DNA of 59,901 bases, the filler included, from Rhabdomonas costata (Eukaryota), in NCBI GenBank assembly GCA_019059605.1. It is 11 parts of 11 records of this genome, joined end to end, with 100 filler letters (N's around TTAATTAATTAA, not from the genome) between each part and the next. Parts side by side here need not be neighbours in the genome. Positions count along the whole stretch, not along the records: positions 16,606 to 21,967 come from JAHMHO010000074.1; 10 more parts are not named here. One strand, written 5' to 3'. Of this stretch, positions 3,001 to 24,119 are shown in pieces. A model generated the notes under the pieces. That model saw only the letters and a program-made list of their open reading frames with translations. It searched no databases and was not told where the DNA came from. The first letter of the stretch is position 1. Each line of letters begins with the position of its first letter. Made by a program: the position numbers and the translations under genes.

Positions 3001-4139
3001 ACTTTCACTGCCTATTCATCCATTTCTCTGAGTCCCATCGATCAATCCGTCCCTCTCCTAATTTCTCCAGTGCTCAGAGCAGAGTCTCACTTCTTCAGTG
3101 CCTACGCTTGCGACACGGGCCCCTGTGCTCCCCGCTCTTCATCCTAGACACTAGATTCGTTCGCTCTTCCAATCGTACGCAACTCTGCCCACCATAGGCA
3201 TCTTCTTTTGCTTTTCAAAGCAACCTGTTCAAAGCAAACAGTTGTCAACGGCCATGGCAGCTGTTCTGTTTGCTTTTGGAATCCTCAGATACCCTTGCGA
3301 GCAGCCCTGGTTGGGTCTGATTTGTGGCCCTGGACCGTCCGGAGCAGTCGTCCCCACTGAGCTGTACCTTTCGGCTCCCATTTGCGCGCTGTCTGCCGCG
3401 CTGCCCTCCTCCGCTACCTCCCCGCTGAACTTCAGTGCGCTCGCTACACTTCCTCTTCTCTCGCTCCGCTTGGAGTCTGATCTGTTCGGCGGGACTGTCC
3501 CACTGGATCAATTGCCCCACACCCTAAAGGTTGTTCTCCCTGCGATATAACACCATTCATTCAAGAGTTTTCCCTTAGGTCAGCCTGACCTGTGACGTTG
3601 ATAGGCGAAGTGGCCGAAACCTCGTCTTGGGGTGCTCGTCTCCGCACCTGCAATTTTTGGGGTTGTGCAACCCTGGCTCCAGGGGAGGGGGGCGGTTCGC
3701 GGCTTGGGTTTCTTCCAAATCTCGGCATTTTGTCGCCGGGTGTTCCTCAGGACTCCGTGTTTGGGTATGGAACAGGAGCTGACTCTGCAGGGCTGCCGCT
3801 TCACGGGCACCGTGGACCTCAGCCACGCCCCGGCGGGATTGCAAACGCTGTCGTTGGCGGACAACGCCTTCACGGGCACCCCCAACCTCACCGCACTGCC
3901 CTTCTCGGCGGTGGCAGTGAGTCTCAGCAGGAACCACTTCAACGGCACTGTGGTGCTTTCTGGGCTTCCGCCTAACCTCACAGTGCTTAGCCTGTCATGG
4001 AACCAGCTGACTGGTCTTGTGGTGGGGAACGACACTGCGGGTGTGTTCGCGAGGAACAATCTCAGTCTAGACCTTTTTGGCAACCCCGGTTTGGCCTGTC
4101 CTGTGGAGCCGCCATCGTGGGTCGCGATACCCTGCACTG
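95..4139 (+). CDS. Partial multi-exon extracellular leucine-rich-repeat protein with at least two capped LRR modules
   Basis: Frame-compatible GT-AG exons at 95-376, 912-2204, 2582-2675, 3289-3529 and 3776-4139. The last donor is a possible GC (GCATGT); alternatively the frame reads on to the stop at 4372. N-caps are DALLKF...SW...PCGGKWVGVSC and ...ISWALGYPCEQPWLGLIC. There are many LxxLDLSxNxxxG repeats. C-caps are NPYVCPLP and NPGLACPV. Confidence 0.85.
703..748. repeat. Short dispersed repeat, second copy at 33372-33418
   Basis: AGAGCAAAAGGGGACGTC(G/T)TCAGT...AAACCTGCACATGACC occurs in non-coding sequence of two different contigs. Confidence 0.75.
2779..3540 (+). repeat. Direct duplication of about 760 bp, copy 1 (intron plus LRR exon 3289-3529)
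   Basis: Begins CAAGATTTACCTCCCCCTAGATGTGCTCAG and aligns along its length with 4615-5368. Confidence 0.95.
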
Positions 4140-4614
4140 GCATGTTACCTCCTCTTGCTCCTTGGCGATTTCCCTTGACGATACGCGGTAAGGTATGGTG
4201 GCAATGCCCAGTGTATGGTTCAGCAAAGCATGCCGTGGTATTCGCGCTTGCGTTTTTTTGCACGAGTTCTATGTTGTGTGTATCCATCGGAGAGGCAGGC
4301 CCCAGGAGATGGTATATAGAAGCCTGCGATGGCTCCCCTCCCCACACAGACACGCACACACCCGGTGTTTAATGGCCGACCCGACGAAGAATATCGGTAT
4401 CAAAACTTTCTGGCGAAGCCGTTTCGTTACGGTTCCTTTTTCGGGACCACTCAACAAGGGTGAACTTGTTCATTGACCCCCCCCCCTTGTAATGGAGAGC
4501 GAAAATACAGCAGAGGAATCAGCTTCTTCTTCTTCTTTCTGTTTCTCTTTTTTGGTGATGGAATCTCACCCTCACTTGGGGGTGGTAAACAGCCCATTGC
4601 GAGTGGTTCTTCCA

Positions 4615-14899: not shown

Positions 14900-16505
14900 C
14901 CCGAACTTTTTCCCACGAATACACTGTCACGTTCTTTCCATTTTTTTGAGTCAGAGTTGGGTTGACTGGCTTTGTACTCCGCTTAGTCTTCATGAGTACC
15001 TGTGTGTCTTCCTGAGACTAATGCATGGCAATGTTTCTATGTTTCTTGCCCAACATGTGGCTAGTCGCATGCTTGTTTTCTGTGCGTCGGAGAGAGGCTA
15101 GCACAGGTCTGATGAATTCACGCCTGGAGCATGCAAATGCTTCCCTATTGCAGCTGCGCTGTCCTATCGGTGACTTCCAGTCTCTGGATGTTTGGATGGA
15201 TGGATGGATGGATTGATGGGCATGTGCTCCATATGAATGTGCCTTGTCTGCGGCCACGCAAACAAAACTCCCTCCAGTGGGCCATGCTGATCCTTCGGTT
15301 GCCGCGATGGCTGCAGGTCAAGTATCTGCAGCGCGGCTTTATCGCATCCCGGAGGCGCACTCGACGGCACGGCTCCTTCAGCACCTCGCCATTACGGAAC
15401 CACATGGCAGTTTGTTAGAGGATCCTCCTCCCGAGGAAATGGCCATTTCTGTAAGCTCATGAAGTTTCCTCCCCTGCTCCTCTTCACCTCCTCTATTCCC
15501 CCGCTTACAGCTGTGAAGCTTCGAATCCACCCTGCCCCCGTCGTCGCGAGAAAACCTGGATGAGGTTTGGCTCGATCAGGAAGTCGAAGTTCTATCATGT
15601 TTGCGTGAAACCTCTCTGTTTCTGGCATCGTACGCAACACCCCATCCCCTTTTCATTCTATTGCCATGCTTTCGCGTGCTTGTTTATACTCTTCTGGTGC
15701 ACCTTCTTCCACCCTTCTTGAACCATCCCAGAGTTCTTGCCTTCCCACCACCACGATGTCAGTGCAACGATATCTTTGGGTGGCTTCAATGTCAGCAGCC
15801 TTTGCGCCAAACCACCAAAATCCATCCACAACAAACCTCTGGTTAATGTTCAGTTACAGCCCTACCCTGGTAGAAAGGAAGCTAGGCTGCTGCAGGTTTG
15901 AACTCTGGGTAGACCTTTTTCTCCAAAAATTAGGCCGAGTTGAAACCGCTTCCACTGTTTCAGAATCTCAAATATCATCCAGCTCAGGACATCCGCTTTT
16001 CGCTGCAGAATTGCAGAATTTTTCCCAAAGCTGCTGGAATACCTGCTGAGATACCAGTGTCTCATCAAAAACAAGGTAATTTACTGAGTGTAATCATAGG
16101 GCTGAGTTGACCCCCGCCGCCTTTCGAGCGGGCCTGCGCTGGATCATTGGCATTCCACTTCGAGGAGGCGACTATAGATGCCCCACGTGCCATGCTCTGG
16201 TGGATGCCGCGGGTCAGCATGCGGTTGTGTGCCTCGGTTCTGGAGCGATTGGCAGAGGACACACCTTCCTCAGAGACGTCGTTTTCGAGGTGTGTACCTT
16301 CGCAGGTCTGGCCGTTGAGAAGGAGCAGCGGCTTCCTCAGCACCCGGAACGGAGGCCAGCCGACCTCCTGCTTCGCCAGTGGCACCACGGACGTGATCTG
16401 GCCGTGGACATGACCATTCACTCCTCCAGCTTGCTGAGCGCCCCGACAAGATTCTCGGAATCGGCTACCACCCCCCACCTCGACAAGGCGGCTGCACACA
16501 ACCAC
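14900..16505 (+). mobile_element. Decayed non-LTR retrotransposon with a restriction-like endonuclease (CRE-clade-like), cut at the contig end
   Basis: ORF 16107-16505 has a CCHC knuckle (CPTC...H...C), then H-x-x-L-R-D, E-K-E, RRPADLL and LAVDMT, typical of the RLE endonuclease. Frameshifted remnants upstream (for example LQCQQPLRQ, resembling QASLPLR) look like the post-RT region. The left boundary is approximate. Confidence 0.75.
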
Positions 16506-16605: not shown

Positions 16606-18934
16606 CGAGCTGTTGCTTCCGGATTCTCAGCGACTCTTGGTAGAGGGGCTCTGCTTCAGAATACTTGCCTTGAGTCATGTGAAGCCTCGCGATTTTGCTC
16701 AGGCTCAATGCCACATCAGGATGCTCCGTACCGAGCTGCTTCTTACATATCCTCAGCGACTCTTGGTAGAGGGGCTCTGCTTCGGAATAGTTCCCTTCAT
16801 CCGTGAGGACGTTGGCATACGCGTTCTTCCCTCGGGAGACTTCCAGGTGATCTCTGCCGTATGTCTGCTCATCGGCCCGGAGGCGATTCATGATTACCTG
16901 TTTGGCCTCCAAAAGGTTGCCCCCATCCGTAAAAAAGTCATTGGCCAGCTCCCAAAACTCATCCACCGCCTCCATTTCAACTAATAGCACCTCACTCTCA
17001 ATTTCAGGAACTCCAGTGGAGGGTTCGGATTGTCCTTTACCCTCAGGCAGAAGTAAAAATTCTCTCAACCTTTTCGCGCATACTCGCTGGCTTCGAATCA
17101 AACGAAACTGCTGCCCCATTGGGTAAAGCGCCTCCTCTTCCTCGGGATACACGGAGACCTCAGCAATTTTTGTAGCACAGCATCGGGGATTCTCGGGGTT
17201 GCTCACTGCAATCATATACAAGGTATTGCCGTGCCACTCCTGCAGAAGGCTCAACGCCCTCTCTGCGGACATAGTGCACGATAGGAACCCCTCGAAGGAG
17301 ATGATGTTGAGCTTTGGGTCCTGCTGGGGGGCGTACCGCGCTTGCATCTCTGCACTCAGGTTCAGGGAGCGGTAGCACTTCCCCTCGTGAGGACTGCGAA
17401 CGCCCAAGTGTCGAACAGCGGTCTGCAGCAGTCGCACAAAGGGCGCCAGATGGCGCTGTGACTCCTCTCGGTTGCGCAGAATCGCATTGATAGCGCGGTA
17501 TACGAAGCACTCCATGGTGTACACGGTCACTGCAACCTCATACAGCTTCTCTGGAGTGCCGCTATCTAGAGCCTCTTTGAGGATCTCGTGGACCTTTTCT
17601 GGAGTGGGGTGGCGTCCCCAAAAGTTCGCTTCCAAGTGCTCTTTCTTCTGAAGGTGCTCCGCGCGCAGCTTGTTCCACTGCGCGTACTTCACCCTCCCGG
17701 AAAGAAAGGCCGCTCCTTCCTTCAAAAGGCCCTTCAGAAGCTCCTCTACACTTGCGGCGTCGCGCTCAAATGGGACATTTCGGTCCCCAATTAAAGGGCT
17801 GATAGCAACCAATCGAGCAAACCCTTTGTTGTAGGTCCGCAGCTGAGCTCCCTCCGTGGCACTCCCTAACCCTCCGCCTCTCTCTTCGCTGCCCTCCCGC
17901 AGGCATAGCTCGCAGCCCAGGTAGGTCTCCATCACTTCTAGGCACCGTTTGCCCGCCACGGGCAGATATCCACAGGACTCTCCCCAAACTTGTTCCGCAG
18001 CGTGCACACGTCAAAGGTCCGCTTGCTGCGGCTACCGCATCGCTCCAACAGCCAAAACAGAGCCTCATGGTGCCCCCGATCTGCCGCCGTGTGCAACGCT
18101 GTGCTGCCCGTATCGGGGTCGTTCCAGTACAGACAGGGCTCCCCACACCATTCATAGACCTAAAAGACATTGTGTCTTTGTGGAGGGGGGGTCAACGGCG
18201 GGCACAAGCTGTGCGGAGAAGAAGCCTCTCAGAGAAATCAAAACCGACCTATCCCACACTGATGGCCGCATGAAGGCCAGCGACGCGGCGGAGCCGGCGG
18301 CTGGGGAGGGAACGTAGAACTGGGGGTCTTTAACGAATATAGTCGCACAGAAAAGATTGTTACCAGCAGTAACCGTAACCACACACAACCTCCAGAGCAC
18401 CCAATATTACGCCTCGCGCCCCTCCTCGGGTCACCCACTATTTTTTTAGCACTAAATGATCCGCGGATCACAGATAAATCGACAACCGCGAAGGAGGGCT
18501 TCTGGTTAACCCCGAGACCCATAGAGTGGTGCCGGGGAGTAGGGGTAGCACACCTTCTCCATCACCTCCACGTGGCCTGCTCGGGCGGCTCGGTACATCA
18601 TTGAGCAGAAGGGCTCCTCCTGAAGCTGCTCGCAAGAAGGCTGCCGTTGCGACAAAACCTCATTAAGCTCTGCTGCGCTGCCCTTCTCAATTGACACGCA
18701 AATCTCCCTTCCCGCATCCGTTTCCGGGTGCTCTGCGTTTTGGCGGACGGAGGGAGAAGCATCCACAGCAGTGGGGGGTGAGCTTGAAGATTGGGGTAAG
18801 AGCGGTGGGGGATCGTCATGTCCTGCAGCACTCAGCGCAGGCGCAGCAATCGGCGTAGAGGTGCTGACGTTGGGTGGAGGGGTGATGTCGTGCACATTGT
18901 TGGAGCTCTTCTGTTCACTCATTATGCACCCCAT
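16606..18934 (-). CDS. MGC N-terminus + ankyrin repeats + R-S-E clade ADP-ribosyltransferase domain + 42-aa TPR repeats; one frameshift near 17960; 3' end off-contig
   Basis: Exon 1 (18934-18554) reads MGCIMSEQ...YRAARAGHVEVMEK. A GT-AG intron follows. Exon 2 from 18159 reads TGSTALHTAADRGHHEAL...NKFGESPVD, then (shifted frame) YTMECFVYRAINAILR, KCYRSL, FLSCT, YPEEEEALY and the TPRs GNYSEAEPLYQESLRICKKQLGTEHPDVA. Confidence 0.85.
16626..16783 (-). repeat. 126-nt period coding tandem repeat (TPR units)
   Basis: An identical 32-nt block CTCAGCGACTCTTGGTAGAGGGGCTCTGCTTC occurs at 16626 and 16752. Confidence 0.9.
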
Positions 18935-19661
18935 TCTCTCCCCCTCTTTTTCAATTATGTCTTGGTTTTTGTTTTTCCTTCTCAAACAAAATACGACAAC
19001 GTGCTCCACCTTTGGGAAAATATGGCCTCTGTCATGTCAAAGGTAAGAAGCAAAAGACAAAAACTCCCAGAAAAACGGAACGACTGAGCGGAATTAGTGG
19101 CTTCCACAAGAAGCGATTGTGCTAACATGGATTACAATGGACACATTTTTCCTTCGGACCTCGGGTAAACCCAATGAAGTGGTGCGCGGGTGCACCAGCG
19201 GTAAATCCCGACCCCTCCACAAACATTCAACCCGAAGGCCCCTGTGCTTCCCAGGGTAAAACCATCGACCACAACATTCTATAAGGACAAAGACGAACAG
19301 CGCAGTTAGTGATACGTGGTCTCAGCAAAGGCAGTGTTTCCGTCCCGGGAAGCTTACTCTGCCTGGAGTCTGGAGCCTGGAGTCCACCTCCTTAATCGTT
19401 CCCACTTGCCCCCATTGAACTGCGGTGCTTTGGAGCCCAATGGGGCACCGCTTTGCACGCTTGCGAGAGCTTTTATCAAAAAATTGCCCAACCTGGTAGG
19501 AAGCGGTCGTTTGGGTTTCATAAGGATAAGGGAAACACTGCACTTCACGTTACATTATTTTGCAGCCGCGCCCGACTTCATCAGTTAACGTTATAACGCT
19601 CGGACCACACGAATGCAGGCCAACCGTTTCAATTCAAAGACAGTTCTGTGTACCCCCCCCC

Positions 19662-19688
19662 CAACAACAACAACAACAACAACAACAA
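19662..19688. repeat. (CAA)n microsatellite
   Basis: Read directly. Other simple repeats: (TGGA)n about 15193-15219, (GT)n about 46479-46503, (GATT)n about 56754-56793, (CT)n about 56935-56958. Confidence 0.95.
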
Positions 19689-22600
19689 ACACATACACAT
19701 AAACACACGAGCACTGCCTCCTGAACCACTGCGACACAATTGATCTCTCCGGATGACCACAGAGAAGACGCTGGGGAGGGAAATCCGGATCGCTAAGACT
19801 TTAGTCAACCCTCCCGCTTAGCCGCGACCTGACCCTGACCTGATGGATTAGCATCGCCGATAAAGAGATGGATGGCGGCAATGGGTGCGCAGCGGAGCAG
19901 TAAGCCTGCATCAAAGCTCTCGCTCAACACGTCAGCAGGCCTGAAGAGGGAACAACACAGAAGGATCTTTGCAGGCCACACACCCCGTCGCCGGTAGGTT
20001 CCCAAGGCCCAGTAGCACAGGGAGTGGTCCCCGACGCAGTCGTTGAAAACACCCCACAATCGAGGCAGTCCCTCTATTCTAAACTCTATACTACACACGC
20101 ACCTCGGGAAAAAGGAAGGGGAAACCAGCCCTGCCCTTCTGAATTGCGTGGGCTCTGTCCAGGGTCTGGGATGGGAACCATCTTCGCTCTGACACCCAGC
20201 ATGACACTCATTTCAGGTTCTTACCTCTTTTTGTCTTACGCTGGTGATATTTTGTGATTAACACGATCCAAAATTTCGTTTGGCGAGGCGTTGTGGTTTG
20301 GGAGAACATCAGCAATGTACCAAGAAAAGAAAGCAGCCCAACGGGAAGATCACGGAAAGTGCACGCAGTTCAGGAGCAGGAACGATGTGTACACAGTCAA
20401 CCCCACTGTGGATTGGTCCAAAGGGAACACGGGGCAAATGGCGGGGAAGGCGGGCACGGCGGACAGGAAAGTTTTCCGTGCACGTGACCCAAGTTAGACG
20501 ATGACCCGAATGAGGGAATAAACCGAAAGAAGGCCTTTCGGTGATGCATCGTGACGTGCAGCCTGCGTAGGGCAAACTGCCTGTCTTGTCTATCTGAACA
20601 CTGCAGCTCATTTGACACAACACACAAATTTCGCGAGCTCTAGAGAGAGAGCAGAGCAGGCAAGGCGCTGCATGTGTGTGGATGTGTCCAATAGGGTTAC
20701 CGCTCGGGAGGGGGGGGGGCTGGTGGATGCCAACTCATAGCAGCCATGGAAGATGAGTATGCGGAAACACCCCGAAAAGACACCCAAGGGCACAATACAG
20801 CCGCATCCCAGAGAAGCGGAGGCAAAAGTAAAACCGAGCCCACGCGGGCTATGCAATGCAGCCGTAGAGCGCTCAACACAACGAAACAGCACACCAATGT
20901 ACACCATTGCTCGCACTGTCCCGGGGAGTGTGGGGAGTGCCTCCTGGTTGTCCATACGTCGGCGTCGGCGTCGGCGCCTTCGCGTGCAGTTCCAGAAAGG
21001 AGGCGGTGGTGAGCGAACAAACAAAAGGTAACACAATCCAATGGCAACACGGTAAAGTGAGGAACAAGGGGAGAGGAGATCGAAGGCAGTGGAGGGAGTG
21101 GGCAGGGCAAACGAAGAGAGGGCAGCCCAACCGTCTCCTGACGTCCGTTTTTTCCCAAAAGGTTGAACACGGGACGCGGTGCATCACACAATGGCACACA
21201 AGAAGGGCACAGAGACGAAGTGAGAGAAAAGGGAGCAGAAGTGGCAGGCGGTGCTCTCGTTGAGTAGCGCAAGAGGGATGCTGCACCTCCACTTTTCACC
21301 CTTGCTCACGTCGAGGTTTTCGAGGGGAGCCCGAGCCCCCCACGCAGGAAGACCACCACCACCACACCTTCTATGGGCCTTGGAGTGGCGGCACCCCCCT
21401 TTGCACAGCAGTAAAGGGAGCAAGCAAAGCATATTACAGGACGATCGGAAATTTTCCCATCCACACGAACACGGCTGGTGAAAGGTCTGGGTTGAGGTCC
21501 GTTCCAGATCCTAACTCCCTGAATATCGGGATAGTATTGCCTTGAAGTAGCTGCAAAGAAGGCGCAACACTGGCAGCTCCCAGCTGCACCTGGAGCAATC
21601 ACAAAACTGCACACAGTGCCTGGCGTTGTGCTTCGATTCCTTCTTCGTCAAAAAGCACTCGCAGCCTGCTTGAGCGCCCACAATGGTACAATATTTTCTC
21701 ATGTCACGCACTTTTTACACAGGCACGTGGAGGTGGGGAGCGACTACCACTGTGCACCCCGTTAAAGCCAAATGCAGATTTTCCCTCCGGGCGGAGAGGA
21801 GGAGCAACCGTATTCCCATCAATCAGCAAAATACAGACAGAAAAGAGATTGTAATGAAACCCCAAAACCCAAGCTGTGAATCGAGTACAGCTTGAAAGTC
21901 CTCCCCTGAATCGGCTTGCCATAAAAACATCCGCTAATTCGGGGCAACACAATGACAACCGTATGAGNNNNNNNNNNNNNNNNNNNNNNNNNNNNNNNNN
22001 NNNNNNNNNNNTTAATTAATTAANNNNNNNNNNNNNNNNNNNNNNNNNNNNNNNNNNNNNNNNNNNNTGTGTTGGGGAGGGGAGGGGAGCCGAGGTTACC
22101 GATGGTAACGATTAGTCTTGTTCTTGGCAATTCATTGAAGAGTCTTCTCTGTCTTTTTGTATTTCTGCTATCAATTCCGTTTCCCTTGAGAAAGGATGGC
22201 AAGTTGAACCCCCTGTGGGGTGGAGCCTGACCATGGACGGTAGCTTTTCGAGGCGCTGGGTGCTTGTGCCTCTTCCCGCCGTTTGGCCAAATTCTAGTGC
22301 TGCCGCTGCCGCGGCGGTGGTAGGTAGTGGGATCAACCTCTCCGGTGGACTGGGCCCGGCTTCCCCCTGGTTCGCAAGGACCATTGCGACTCCCCCTCAG
22401 TACCCAACCCGTCCCTCGGCCACTCGCAGGGGATCATACCAGGGCACTCCGAAGGGCTGGCAAAGAGTGAAGGCTGCGGAAGCCCGTGGTATGCCATTAT
22501 CACCCAACTCTTCTAACCGACCTGCATCCCACGTCCACCCCAACCAGGTCACTGTTATGCTTAGGGACGGCAAAAAAGCTGGCAAGAAAACCGGAAGTCT

Positions 22601-23844
22601 AGCGGTGAGCGGCTGCCTCCCCAGATACCGAAAAAAGTATCGGAACCGCATCGGATGCTCATTTGTTGATGATCGCTACCGAAGAATGCAATCCCTTTTT
22701 CCGTCGTACGCGTTCATGTCACCTATTCACCTGTTTGTCTTCGGCATCCAGCCCAATCCTGGGCCGACTTCAACCCGACACTCTTTGGCGGACCCAATCG
22801 CAAGCACGCACGCGCACGCACACAATCGCTGCATCGTTCTCCGTTGTTTTACACACTGTGCGTTCGCAGCCTCCTACTTATGTCCATGATTATGCTTGAT
22901 GACCCTTTCACTTTCTATTTCCCGTTCTTGTCGGGTGGATCGTCCTAGCTCGGGAGCGTTGAGCAAGAATCTGCAACCTTGGTCTTGCACGAGATCCGTG
23001 CCCAATCACTGCAAATTGTAACCGCAAGTCTTTTTTTCACTTTGACTTTGTAAACGACATTTGTCAATAAAGTCACTCATAAATGCTCTCTGCGCTTCTT
23101 CTCACTGAGCGGTTGCCTTTTAGGACGCGCCTACTGTGGATGCAAGCCCTCTACCAGGGAGAAGCCTCCACTCTTGAAGAAAGGTATGGGTGGACAAATG
23201 GGTTAGGGTACTTGTGCGTTTCCTGTGAGGACCTTCTTCTTGGAGCTTTCACCAAAGCATGCCAATTAACAGCTCGCGAGCAGCATCCCAAATCATTCTG
23301 CTCCAGAAACCGTTGTTTCAAGACCGATCAGCAGCATTTAACGAGGATGAGTGTTCTACCGTCACTCATGAATAACGTTTGCAGTTCAATCGAACACATA
23401 AAAATGTTTTCTATGGTATCATCTTTCCCATTTCCCAGAGACTCTTACGCCGGCATTTGCAGAGACGTTTGCACTTGGTGGGGCATGCACACACGGGGGC
23501 CGACATTTCAAAAGAGGAGCAAAGAAAAACTGAGAGCAACTTGATAGAAGTGCACGAGAAATAGGACCCAGTAGCAGGCGTAAACCGCTTTCAACGTGGG
23601 CCAGCGCGCCGCGGCCTGAGCCAAACACTTGACCACCGTCATGTTCCTCTGGAATTCCAACAGGGGCTTAAGGTGGTGATCGTAAGGGGGGGTCCGCTAG
23701 GTCCGTTCTGAATTCCGAAGATTCCTAAACCCGAAGATTGCTACTCACTCAGTTCTCAGAACGCTTCTCACGGAGGTGAATAGTGGGTGGTATAAAGGAG
23801 TCCAAGTCCGGCCTCTTTGTCAGTTTATGTCCATTGCCCCTCAG

Positions 23845-24119
23845 GCCCGTGCACGCGAAGTGTCGGTGTTCAAGTCCCGGAGGGCCTGTCGGGAGAGGGC
23901 CTTCCCCATGGCGCTTCCATCGGTGGAGCCCTCCCTGAGGGGCTGTGCGTGCTGTGCCTGGAGCGCCCGCGCCGGGCGTGCATTGTAGACTGTGGGCACG
24001 CGCAGTTCTGCATGGAGTGCCTGCGGGAGTACGTCGCGGTGAGCCGGCAGTCCGGGCTGCCCCCGCTGTGCCCGGTGTGCCGAGTCGGGGTGCGGAAGGT
24101 CATCACGATCTTTGTCTGA
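23845..24119 (+). CDS. Terminal exon encoding a C3HC4 RING finger (putative E3 ligase)
   Basis: CVLC...CGHAQFCMEC...CPVC followed by a TGA stop; AG acceptor at 23843-23844. Confidence 0.85.

Follow-up and report, generated by a model that had tools for sequence, protein, structure and literature searches.

An Ank-ART-TPR locus on the minus strand of Rhabdomonas costata contig G000:C74 (5,362 bases; window 16606-21967) is interpreted here as a recently broken or mis-assembled copy of an expanded euglenid subfamily, which belongs to an old protist family with intact members that are probably defensive ADP-ribosyltransferases (ARTs); for this reading as a whole, confidence and doubt are about evenly matched. 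The family architecture comprises, in order, an acylation motif or other anchor, ankyrins, a helical lobe, an ART domain of the R-S-ExE type, and an array of 42-residue TPRs. The family is a genuine and apparently undescribed variant of a known enzyme class, and an immune role for it is plausible.

The window, that is, the whole stretch of 59,901 nucleotides analyzed, consists of contigs of about 5.4 kb each joined by N linkers, so genes that adjoin in it are not true neighbors. The genome assembly from which it comes comprises 97 Mb in 104,289 contigs. The features of the locus are as follows.

18554..18934, minus strand: exon 1 (127 codons), with the MGCIMS start, a Pro/Ser/Thr-rich linker and the first ankyrin-like helices
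18917..18934, minus strand: putative N-myristoylation and palmitoylation motif M-G-C-I-M-S (Gly2, Cys3, Ser6)
18160..18553, minus strand: GT-AG intron of 394 nt, phase 0, interrupting the ankyrin region
17941..18159, minus strand: first frame of exon 2, ankyrin repeats (73 codons, then a stop at 17940-17938)
17944..17961, minus strand: frameshift region, where sequence present in the paralogues is deleted; it separates the last ankyrin from the ART body
17525..17839, minus strand: N-terminal helical lobe of the ART, specific to this family; RTYN..F and SPLIGDR are conserved in it
16919..17524, minus strand: R-S-ExE (ARTC-type) catalytic domain, terminating in the family motif AVDEFW..DFF.DGG
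17524-17474, minus strand: YT..Y..IN..LR helix of the ART domain
17377-17363, minus strand: R of the ART catalytic domain, in CYRSL
17287-17273, minus strand: S of the ART catalytic domain, in FLSCT
17149-17120, minus strand: ExE of the ART catalytic domain, in YPEEEEALYP
16606..16849, minus strand: two 42-residue TPR units, truncated by the contig end at 16606

The start codon at 18934 is the first ATG downstream of an in-frame stop, and it opens the MGCIMS sequence, which by its motif is a putative myristoylation and palmitoylation signal. Pro, Ser and Thr make up 51% of the 49 residues of the linker. Exon 1 has 72% DNA identity to paralogue L064 along its entire length; L064, L065 and L066 resemble the locus up to just past the same intron donor and then diverge, and in L022, L003 and L025 the intron is absent and the frame runs straight through. 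Because of the paralogues whose similarity ends at the donor and those that lack the intron, the gene model is well supported even without transcripts. Exon 2 scored above the Pfam cut-offs for ankyrins (Ank_4, E = 3.4e-5; Ank, E = 2.1e-4). The ART-TPR open reading frame (ORF) occupies 18010-16606 on the minus strand; its ART domain matched PF01129 (E = 1.9e-8, 34.3 bits with a cut-off of 22.3) and its TPRs matched Pfam TPR_12 (E = 1.6e-18), while an NCBIfam scan of this copy returned TPR matches only, all below cut-off. A sequence-only reading of this DNA had proposed an N-terminal MGC, a Pro/Ser-rich linker, ankyrin repeats, an ART domain with R, S and ExE residues plus a YT...Y..IN..LR helix, and 42-residue TPRs leaving the contig, and each of these elements was recovered, the ART motifs at the places claimed. 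The intron at 18160-18553 was limited to one subgroup of paralogues, and its interior contained stretches of 45-120 nt matching five other contigs at 73-89%, perhaps a small dispersed repeat.

Elsewhere in the window, positions 806-2227 contained a 473-codon leucine-rich-repeat (LRR) ORF whose N-cap is of the plant LRR type (Pfam LRR_4, E = 6e-16; LRRNT_2, E = 1.2e-6), downstream of which lay a second LRR-like frame at 3605-4372. A C3HC4 RING finger exon was found at 23796-24119 (E = 6.5e-10). On contig C73, which is not the contig of the ART gene, an open frame at 16080-16505 carried a Cys/His cluster and had no Pfam hit; together with a downstream segment, this cluster recalls the zinc finger and endonuclease found C-terminally in retroelements.

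In the assembly sequence of the G000:C74 copy, the ankyrin frame closes at its stop codon and the ART-TPR part lies in another frame. DNA alignment at the break, near 17945-17960, revealed a 16-nt gap relative to L004, the closest paralogue, and a 10-nt gap relative to L022, L003 and L025. The ankyrin/ART junction is in a single frame in 15 of the 16 own-genome contigs that cover it, C74 being the exception, which makes either recent pseudogenization of this copy or an error in the assembly probable. An intron was considered as the cause of the frame switch; all frame-switching GT-AG pairs of at least 25 nt delete at least 10 codons, and it was rejected because the deleted codons are coding in the paralogues. 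Splicing across the frame break may produce a shortened isoform. The earlier claim that the parts form a single protein thus has to be divided: the architecture is uninterrupted in the intact paralogues P0002 and P0004 and in EukProt euglenid P0006, and the claim fails for the frameshifted G000:C74 copy.

The dN/dS of this copy against its paralogues was 0.14-0.28 on either side of the break (0.14 against L004), values that fit a lesion that is either very recent or an assembly fault. On the latter explanation the gene would be intact in the organism and encode the full four-part protein. The low ratios on both sides, the single lesion visible in the copy and the very fragmented assembly all fit such an artifact. 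However, the gap of 10-16 nt lies in nonrepetitive sequence and is no homopolymer slip, and lesions in 12 of the 34 family contigs make broken copies common. A search of the assembly found neither a second, intact haplotype nor a contig extending this copy, the best other matches being paralogues with 76-82% identity, and no near-identical protein was found outside it (at best, 192 residues of the 454-residue body are identical). From this comparison of sequences, we consider an intact gene distinctly unlikely, and the G000:C74 copy is very probably truly broken, as a very recent pseudogene.

The genome was queried with the ART core, the ankyrin region, exon 1 and DNA, which yielded 24, 18, 12, 9 and 13 matches. 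The family set, from which intron-only and TPR-only matches were excluded, spans 34 distinct contigs and represents at least 15 copies, a lower bound counted from contigs that span the ExE region; the gene is thus multi-copy. Among the 12 contigs with stops or frame changes is C14358, and some of these apparent lesions may in fact reflect introns or faulty assembly. Intact Ank-ART-TPR frames were represented by P0002 (868 amino acids [aa], seven TPR_10 matches) and P0004 (788 aa, with an MGC start). In 12 of 12 pairwise comparisons between paralogues dN/dS was 0.14-0.44, and the Ank-ART-TPR paralogues are under purifying selection.

Rearranged copies were also observed. In L005:3-1598 the helical lobe of the ART restarts after two TPRs, a tandem internal duplication (ART-TPR-ART). 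An in-frame TAG interrupts L008:1458-2732; EukProt P0006 is identical to this locus at 423 of 425 residues after the TAG and at 118 of 215 before it, and the ankyrin part of P0006 is 94% identical to L027. These identities point either to recombination between paralogues or to a transcript assembled as a chimera. The genome also contains other R-S-E ART groups outside the family clade (loci L035-L059), with at least 30 PF01129 matches; six ARTs were placed outside by the tree. A P-loop-like segment comes after the ART in L048 and L056; the domain that comes after it in L039 has no clear Pfam match.

A word-index protein search identified one relative; the remaining relatives came from a profile of 11 paralogues searched against 1.84 billion representatives, which gave 975 matches at E ≤ 0.001. 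Among the best 150 of these 975, the top relatives share motifs on both sides of the ART, SPLIGDR preceding it and GQQF and AVDxFW..DGG following it, and the SPLIGDR segment occurred in 0 of 116 generic ART hits. In a midpoint-rooted tree of 66 ART domains, from which rows shorter than 130 residues were omitted, the 44 family rows formed a clade with 100/100 support and six other own-genome ARTs fell outside; own-genome copies grouped with P0006, P0007 and P0164 in a subclade at 100/98. Source lookup of 30 proteins gave euglenids for EukProt entries P0006, P0010 and P0015, Euglena longa P0014 and E. gracilis P0018; the other labels were Picozoa for P0170, which clusters with P0024, and MMETSP transcripts for P0160 and P0165. 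The EukProt entries P0010 and P0015 match own-genome loci L006 and L025 at 98% (458 residues) and 100% (297 residues), respectively. Many entries are fragments; among the 34 proteins scanned, 23 had TPRs and 10 had ankyrins within their top five hits, and the family ankyrin profile matched 13 of 28. By sequence, then, the Ank-ART-TPR family is old and present in several protist lineages, including euglenids and Picozoa, so that the euglenozoan system originally proposed does occur in euglenids but extends beyond the euglenozoans.

N-terminal MG starts were found in seven own-genome family contigs, six of which read MGC, G000:C74 included. Across Met-initial proteins, MG starts occurred in 7 of 25 family members and 8 of 106 generic ART hits (Fisher P = 0.009, a test that ignores kinship). 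P0002 and P0015 do not begin with MG, and the N terminus of P0005 is instead a weak RIIa-like segment (E = 0.013, below cut-off). The putative N-terminal MGC anchor, from which membrane tethering was first proposed for the locus, is common in the family and not universal.

The AlphaFold model of the G000:C74 ART body (pLDDT 89.4, pTM 0.89) gave HopU1 (Z = 15.9), XopAI (15.0) and ART2.2 (12.4) as structural matches, and the top 20 matches (Z = 15.9-9.7) included these together with SpvB, Vis, ExoS, VIP2 and C3. The predicted structure is thus the split beta-sheet ART fold of the ARTC or R-S-E clade, as had been proposed from sequence. Between the ankyrins and the catalytic core lies a segment that the model assigns to the ART itself as a helical lobe; it can be aligned with the N-terminal portions of HopU1, XopAI and ART2.2. 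For an intact paralogue, a model of 561 residues (pTM 0.90) suggests that ankyrins, ART and first TPRs are packed as one rigid body. In the alignment of the paralogue profile with HopU1 (E = 4.5e-4), the R, S and ExE residues coincide with the HopU1 motifs YRG, FMST and SEEE. In place of S-T-S the motif is S-C-T, and the residue following R is not Gly.

Conservation was counted over 52 aligned rows, including six near-duplicate row pairs. Of the rows with a residue at the site, the catalytic R was present in 40 of 48, S in 35 of 46, E(-2) in 43 of 46 and the catalytic E in 36 of 46, and the second Gln of GQQF in 44 of 44. Catalytic residues were partly lost in Euglena longa P0014, E. gracilis P0018, P0030/P0031 and own-genome L008, L010 and L005; P0014, P0018, P0030/P0031, L008 and L010 lack R and/or S. 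P0014, P0018, P0030 and P0031 keep the flanking family motifs and are candidate pseudo-ARTs; members without R and/or S fit regulatory or scaffold roles. The description of a toxin-type R-S-ExE enzyme consequently applies to the G000:C74 copy, which has the full set, and not to some Euglena members. Excerpts of PMC3102197 describe ExE, with its Glu two before the catalytic Glu, as a mark of arginine specificity, and arginine is therefore the predicted acceptor.

Hydropathy scans found no signal peptide or membrane stretch in the G000:C74 copy or the intact paralogues (N-terminal maxima of 0.72 for exon 1 and 0.66 for P0004; the C terminus consists of TPRs), and the family is therefore predicted to be cytosolic. 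Pfam scans found no NACHT or NB-ARC domain, and no NTPase match was present for P0004, among the matches listed for P0005, or in the 25 families shown of 28 for P0002. A Walker A pattern occurred in 1 of 15 sequences scanned (P0028) and was absent from the G000:C74 copy and its intact paralogues, consistent with the NTPase-less character proposed earlier.

The TPRs have a period of 42 residues, and their closest solved structures are kinesin light chain TPRs. Variability is highest at helix-A positions 6, 13, 16 and 17, where pN was 0.56, versus 0.23 elsewhere, with pS of ~0.62; pN/pS at these four positions, which were picked post hoc, is ~0.9 and not clearly above 1. The variable positions thus appear to be relaxed or weakly diversifying, which is no proof of an arms race. 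TPR number and variable positions differ among copies. Mean identity between the repeats of one array was 0.68-0.79 in L076 (0.74), L012 (0.79) and P0005, and 0.34-0.57 in seven other loci; repeats of L076 are up to 89% identical to each other. Highly similar internal repeats are reported for fungal NLRs in excerpts of PMC4986451. For a variable TPR sensor with an immunity role, as the sequence-only reading had it, the variable positions and repeat numbers speak in favor, whereas the pN/pS value does not, and the case is circumstantial.

In the mechanism that we propose, intact members would be cytosolic, and many would be anchored at the inner membrane face by myristate and palmitate on Gly2 and Cys3. 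Through its variable face the TPR array would bind a protein that is either target or trigger; next to it, the ART, rigidly packed with the ankyrins and first TPRs, would move one ADP-ribose from NAD+ to an arginine, either on the TPR-bound target or on a nearby host protein. Birth and death of copies would have enlarged the family. The catalytic step assumes active transferases, and the ART domains might instead be mainly NAD+ hydrolases or inactive NAD/ADP-ribose-binding pseudo-enzymes that serve as decoys or sensors. The repeated loss of R, S or E among members, the noncanonical S-C-T motif, and a GQQF Gln that is invariant where the catalytic residues are not would all suit this explanation. 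Against it, E(-2), which specifies arginine transfer, is kept in nearly all rows, and most members, G000:C74 included, retain the full catalytic set. We regard hydrolases or pseudo-enzymes as very unlikely and, judging from the conserved residues, find it highly likely that intact members are active arginine ARTs.

As to what such enzymes would do, a role in defense or conflict, with symbionts, viruses or ingested bacteria as the opponents, is a proposition for this lineage on which we are evenly divided. We favor it because the family combines birth-and-death expansion with variable repeats that resemble the fungal NLR repeats described in excerpts of PMC4986451. The broader form of this idea, a pan-protist NTPase-less immune receptor-enzyme in which detection of an invader protein by the variable TPR array directly activates a membrane-sited cytosolic arginine ART, is unlikely. 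A serious competing explanation, which we nevertheless rate as somewhat unlikely, is that the flagellar or pellicular membrane has in this family a housekeeping scaffold or signaling enzyme that ADP-ribosylates a conserved host protein, with the expansion being drift in a repeat-rich genome. Dual acylation sends euglenozoan proteins to the flagellar membrane (excerpts of PMC5617996 and PMC3220528), MG(C) starts recur in distant family members, and the weak RIIa-type match of P0005 is of a docking kind. The retention of family motifs across euglenids, Picozoa and MMETSP entries, the age and partly pseudo-enzymatic nature of the family, and purifying selection without clear positive selection are likewise what a housekeeping protein would show. 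This explanation is countered by the number of divergent copies, many of them broken, by the differences among copies in repeat number and variable TPR positions, and by the further, unrelated ART expansions of the same genome. A viral origin of the ART was also considered and is unsupported, the BFVD matches being distant ARTs with 10-20% identity.

No published description of the family, its three-domain form or its rotifer look-alikes was found in a search that covered mainly open-access literature; the 2015 review of ART natural history by Aravind and colleagues may list such architectures. The family is not mentioned in the portions consulted of PMC3482391, PMC9503650, PMC8195603, PMC7955679, PMC6321704, PMC12220480 and bioRxiv 10.64898/2026.09.21.753143. 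In a placozoan immunity paper the string "ribosyl" occurs nowhere in the text, and no ART-TPR proteins are reported there. Because the G000:C74 copy is probably dead, the value lies in the family and in intact members, which include G000:C1160 and G000:C1071.

Compared with known systems, the closest solved folds are the plant-pathogen type III effector ARTs HopU1 and XopAI (PDB 3u0j and 6k94), for which 196-200 residues align at rmsd 3.4 and 3.2, respectively, including the N-terminal helices and R-S-ExE. These are, however, injected bacterial effectors without ankyrins or TPRs and share 14-19% identity with the family ART, whereas G000:C74 carries a gene of a nuclear family, with a spliceosomal intron. 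The vertebrate ecto-ARTs (ARTC1-5; ART2.2, PDB 1gxy) share the PF01129 family, the fold and R-S-ExE. Mammalian ARTCs are GPI anchored or secreted, according to excerpts of PMC9027952; in contrast, neither a signal nor a membrane stretch was seen in the Ank-ART-TPR family, which has repeat domains and a predicted cytosolic location. Automatically annotated rotifer proteins come close in domain content: Rotifera-dominated ESM Atlas clusters, in large expansions, combine ART with TPRs (ART-TPR part, scores of 0.93-0.95) or ankyrins with ART (Ank-ART part, 0.94), and therefore the pairwise combinations are not new to databases. None of the rotifer clusters among those listed has all three domains, and they are look-alikes compared by features and not by clade. 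Fungal NLR-like STAND proteins, as described in excerpts of PMC4986451, likewise join an effector enzyme to internally similar repeats that vary in number and positions; unlike them, the present family has no NACHT or NB-ARC domain, its enzyme directly precedes the repeats, and its variable positions gave no clear sign of positive selection. By fold and motif, the family is a member of the ARTC/R-S-ExE clade that is neither an ecto-ART nor an NLR.

Excerpts of PMC3102197 and PMC9027952 place the characterized eukaryotic R-S-E ARTs in extracellular or luminal space and describe intracellular arginine-specific ARTs as not pinned down. A cytosolic, repeat-guided arginine ART family across euglenids, Picozoa and other protists would, if true, supply a tractable example and, as a candidate, a form of protist immunity that dispenses with the NLR switch; should the immune receptor-enzyme reading hold as well, it would count as an intracellular ARTC endogenous to eukaryotes.
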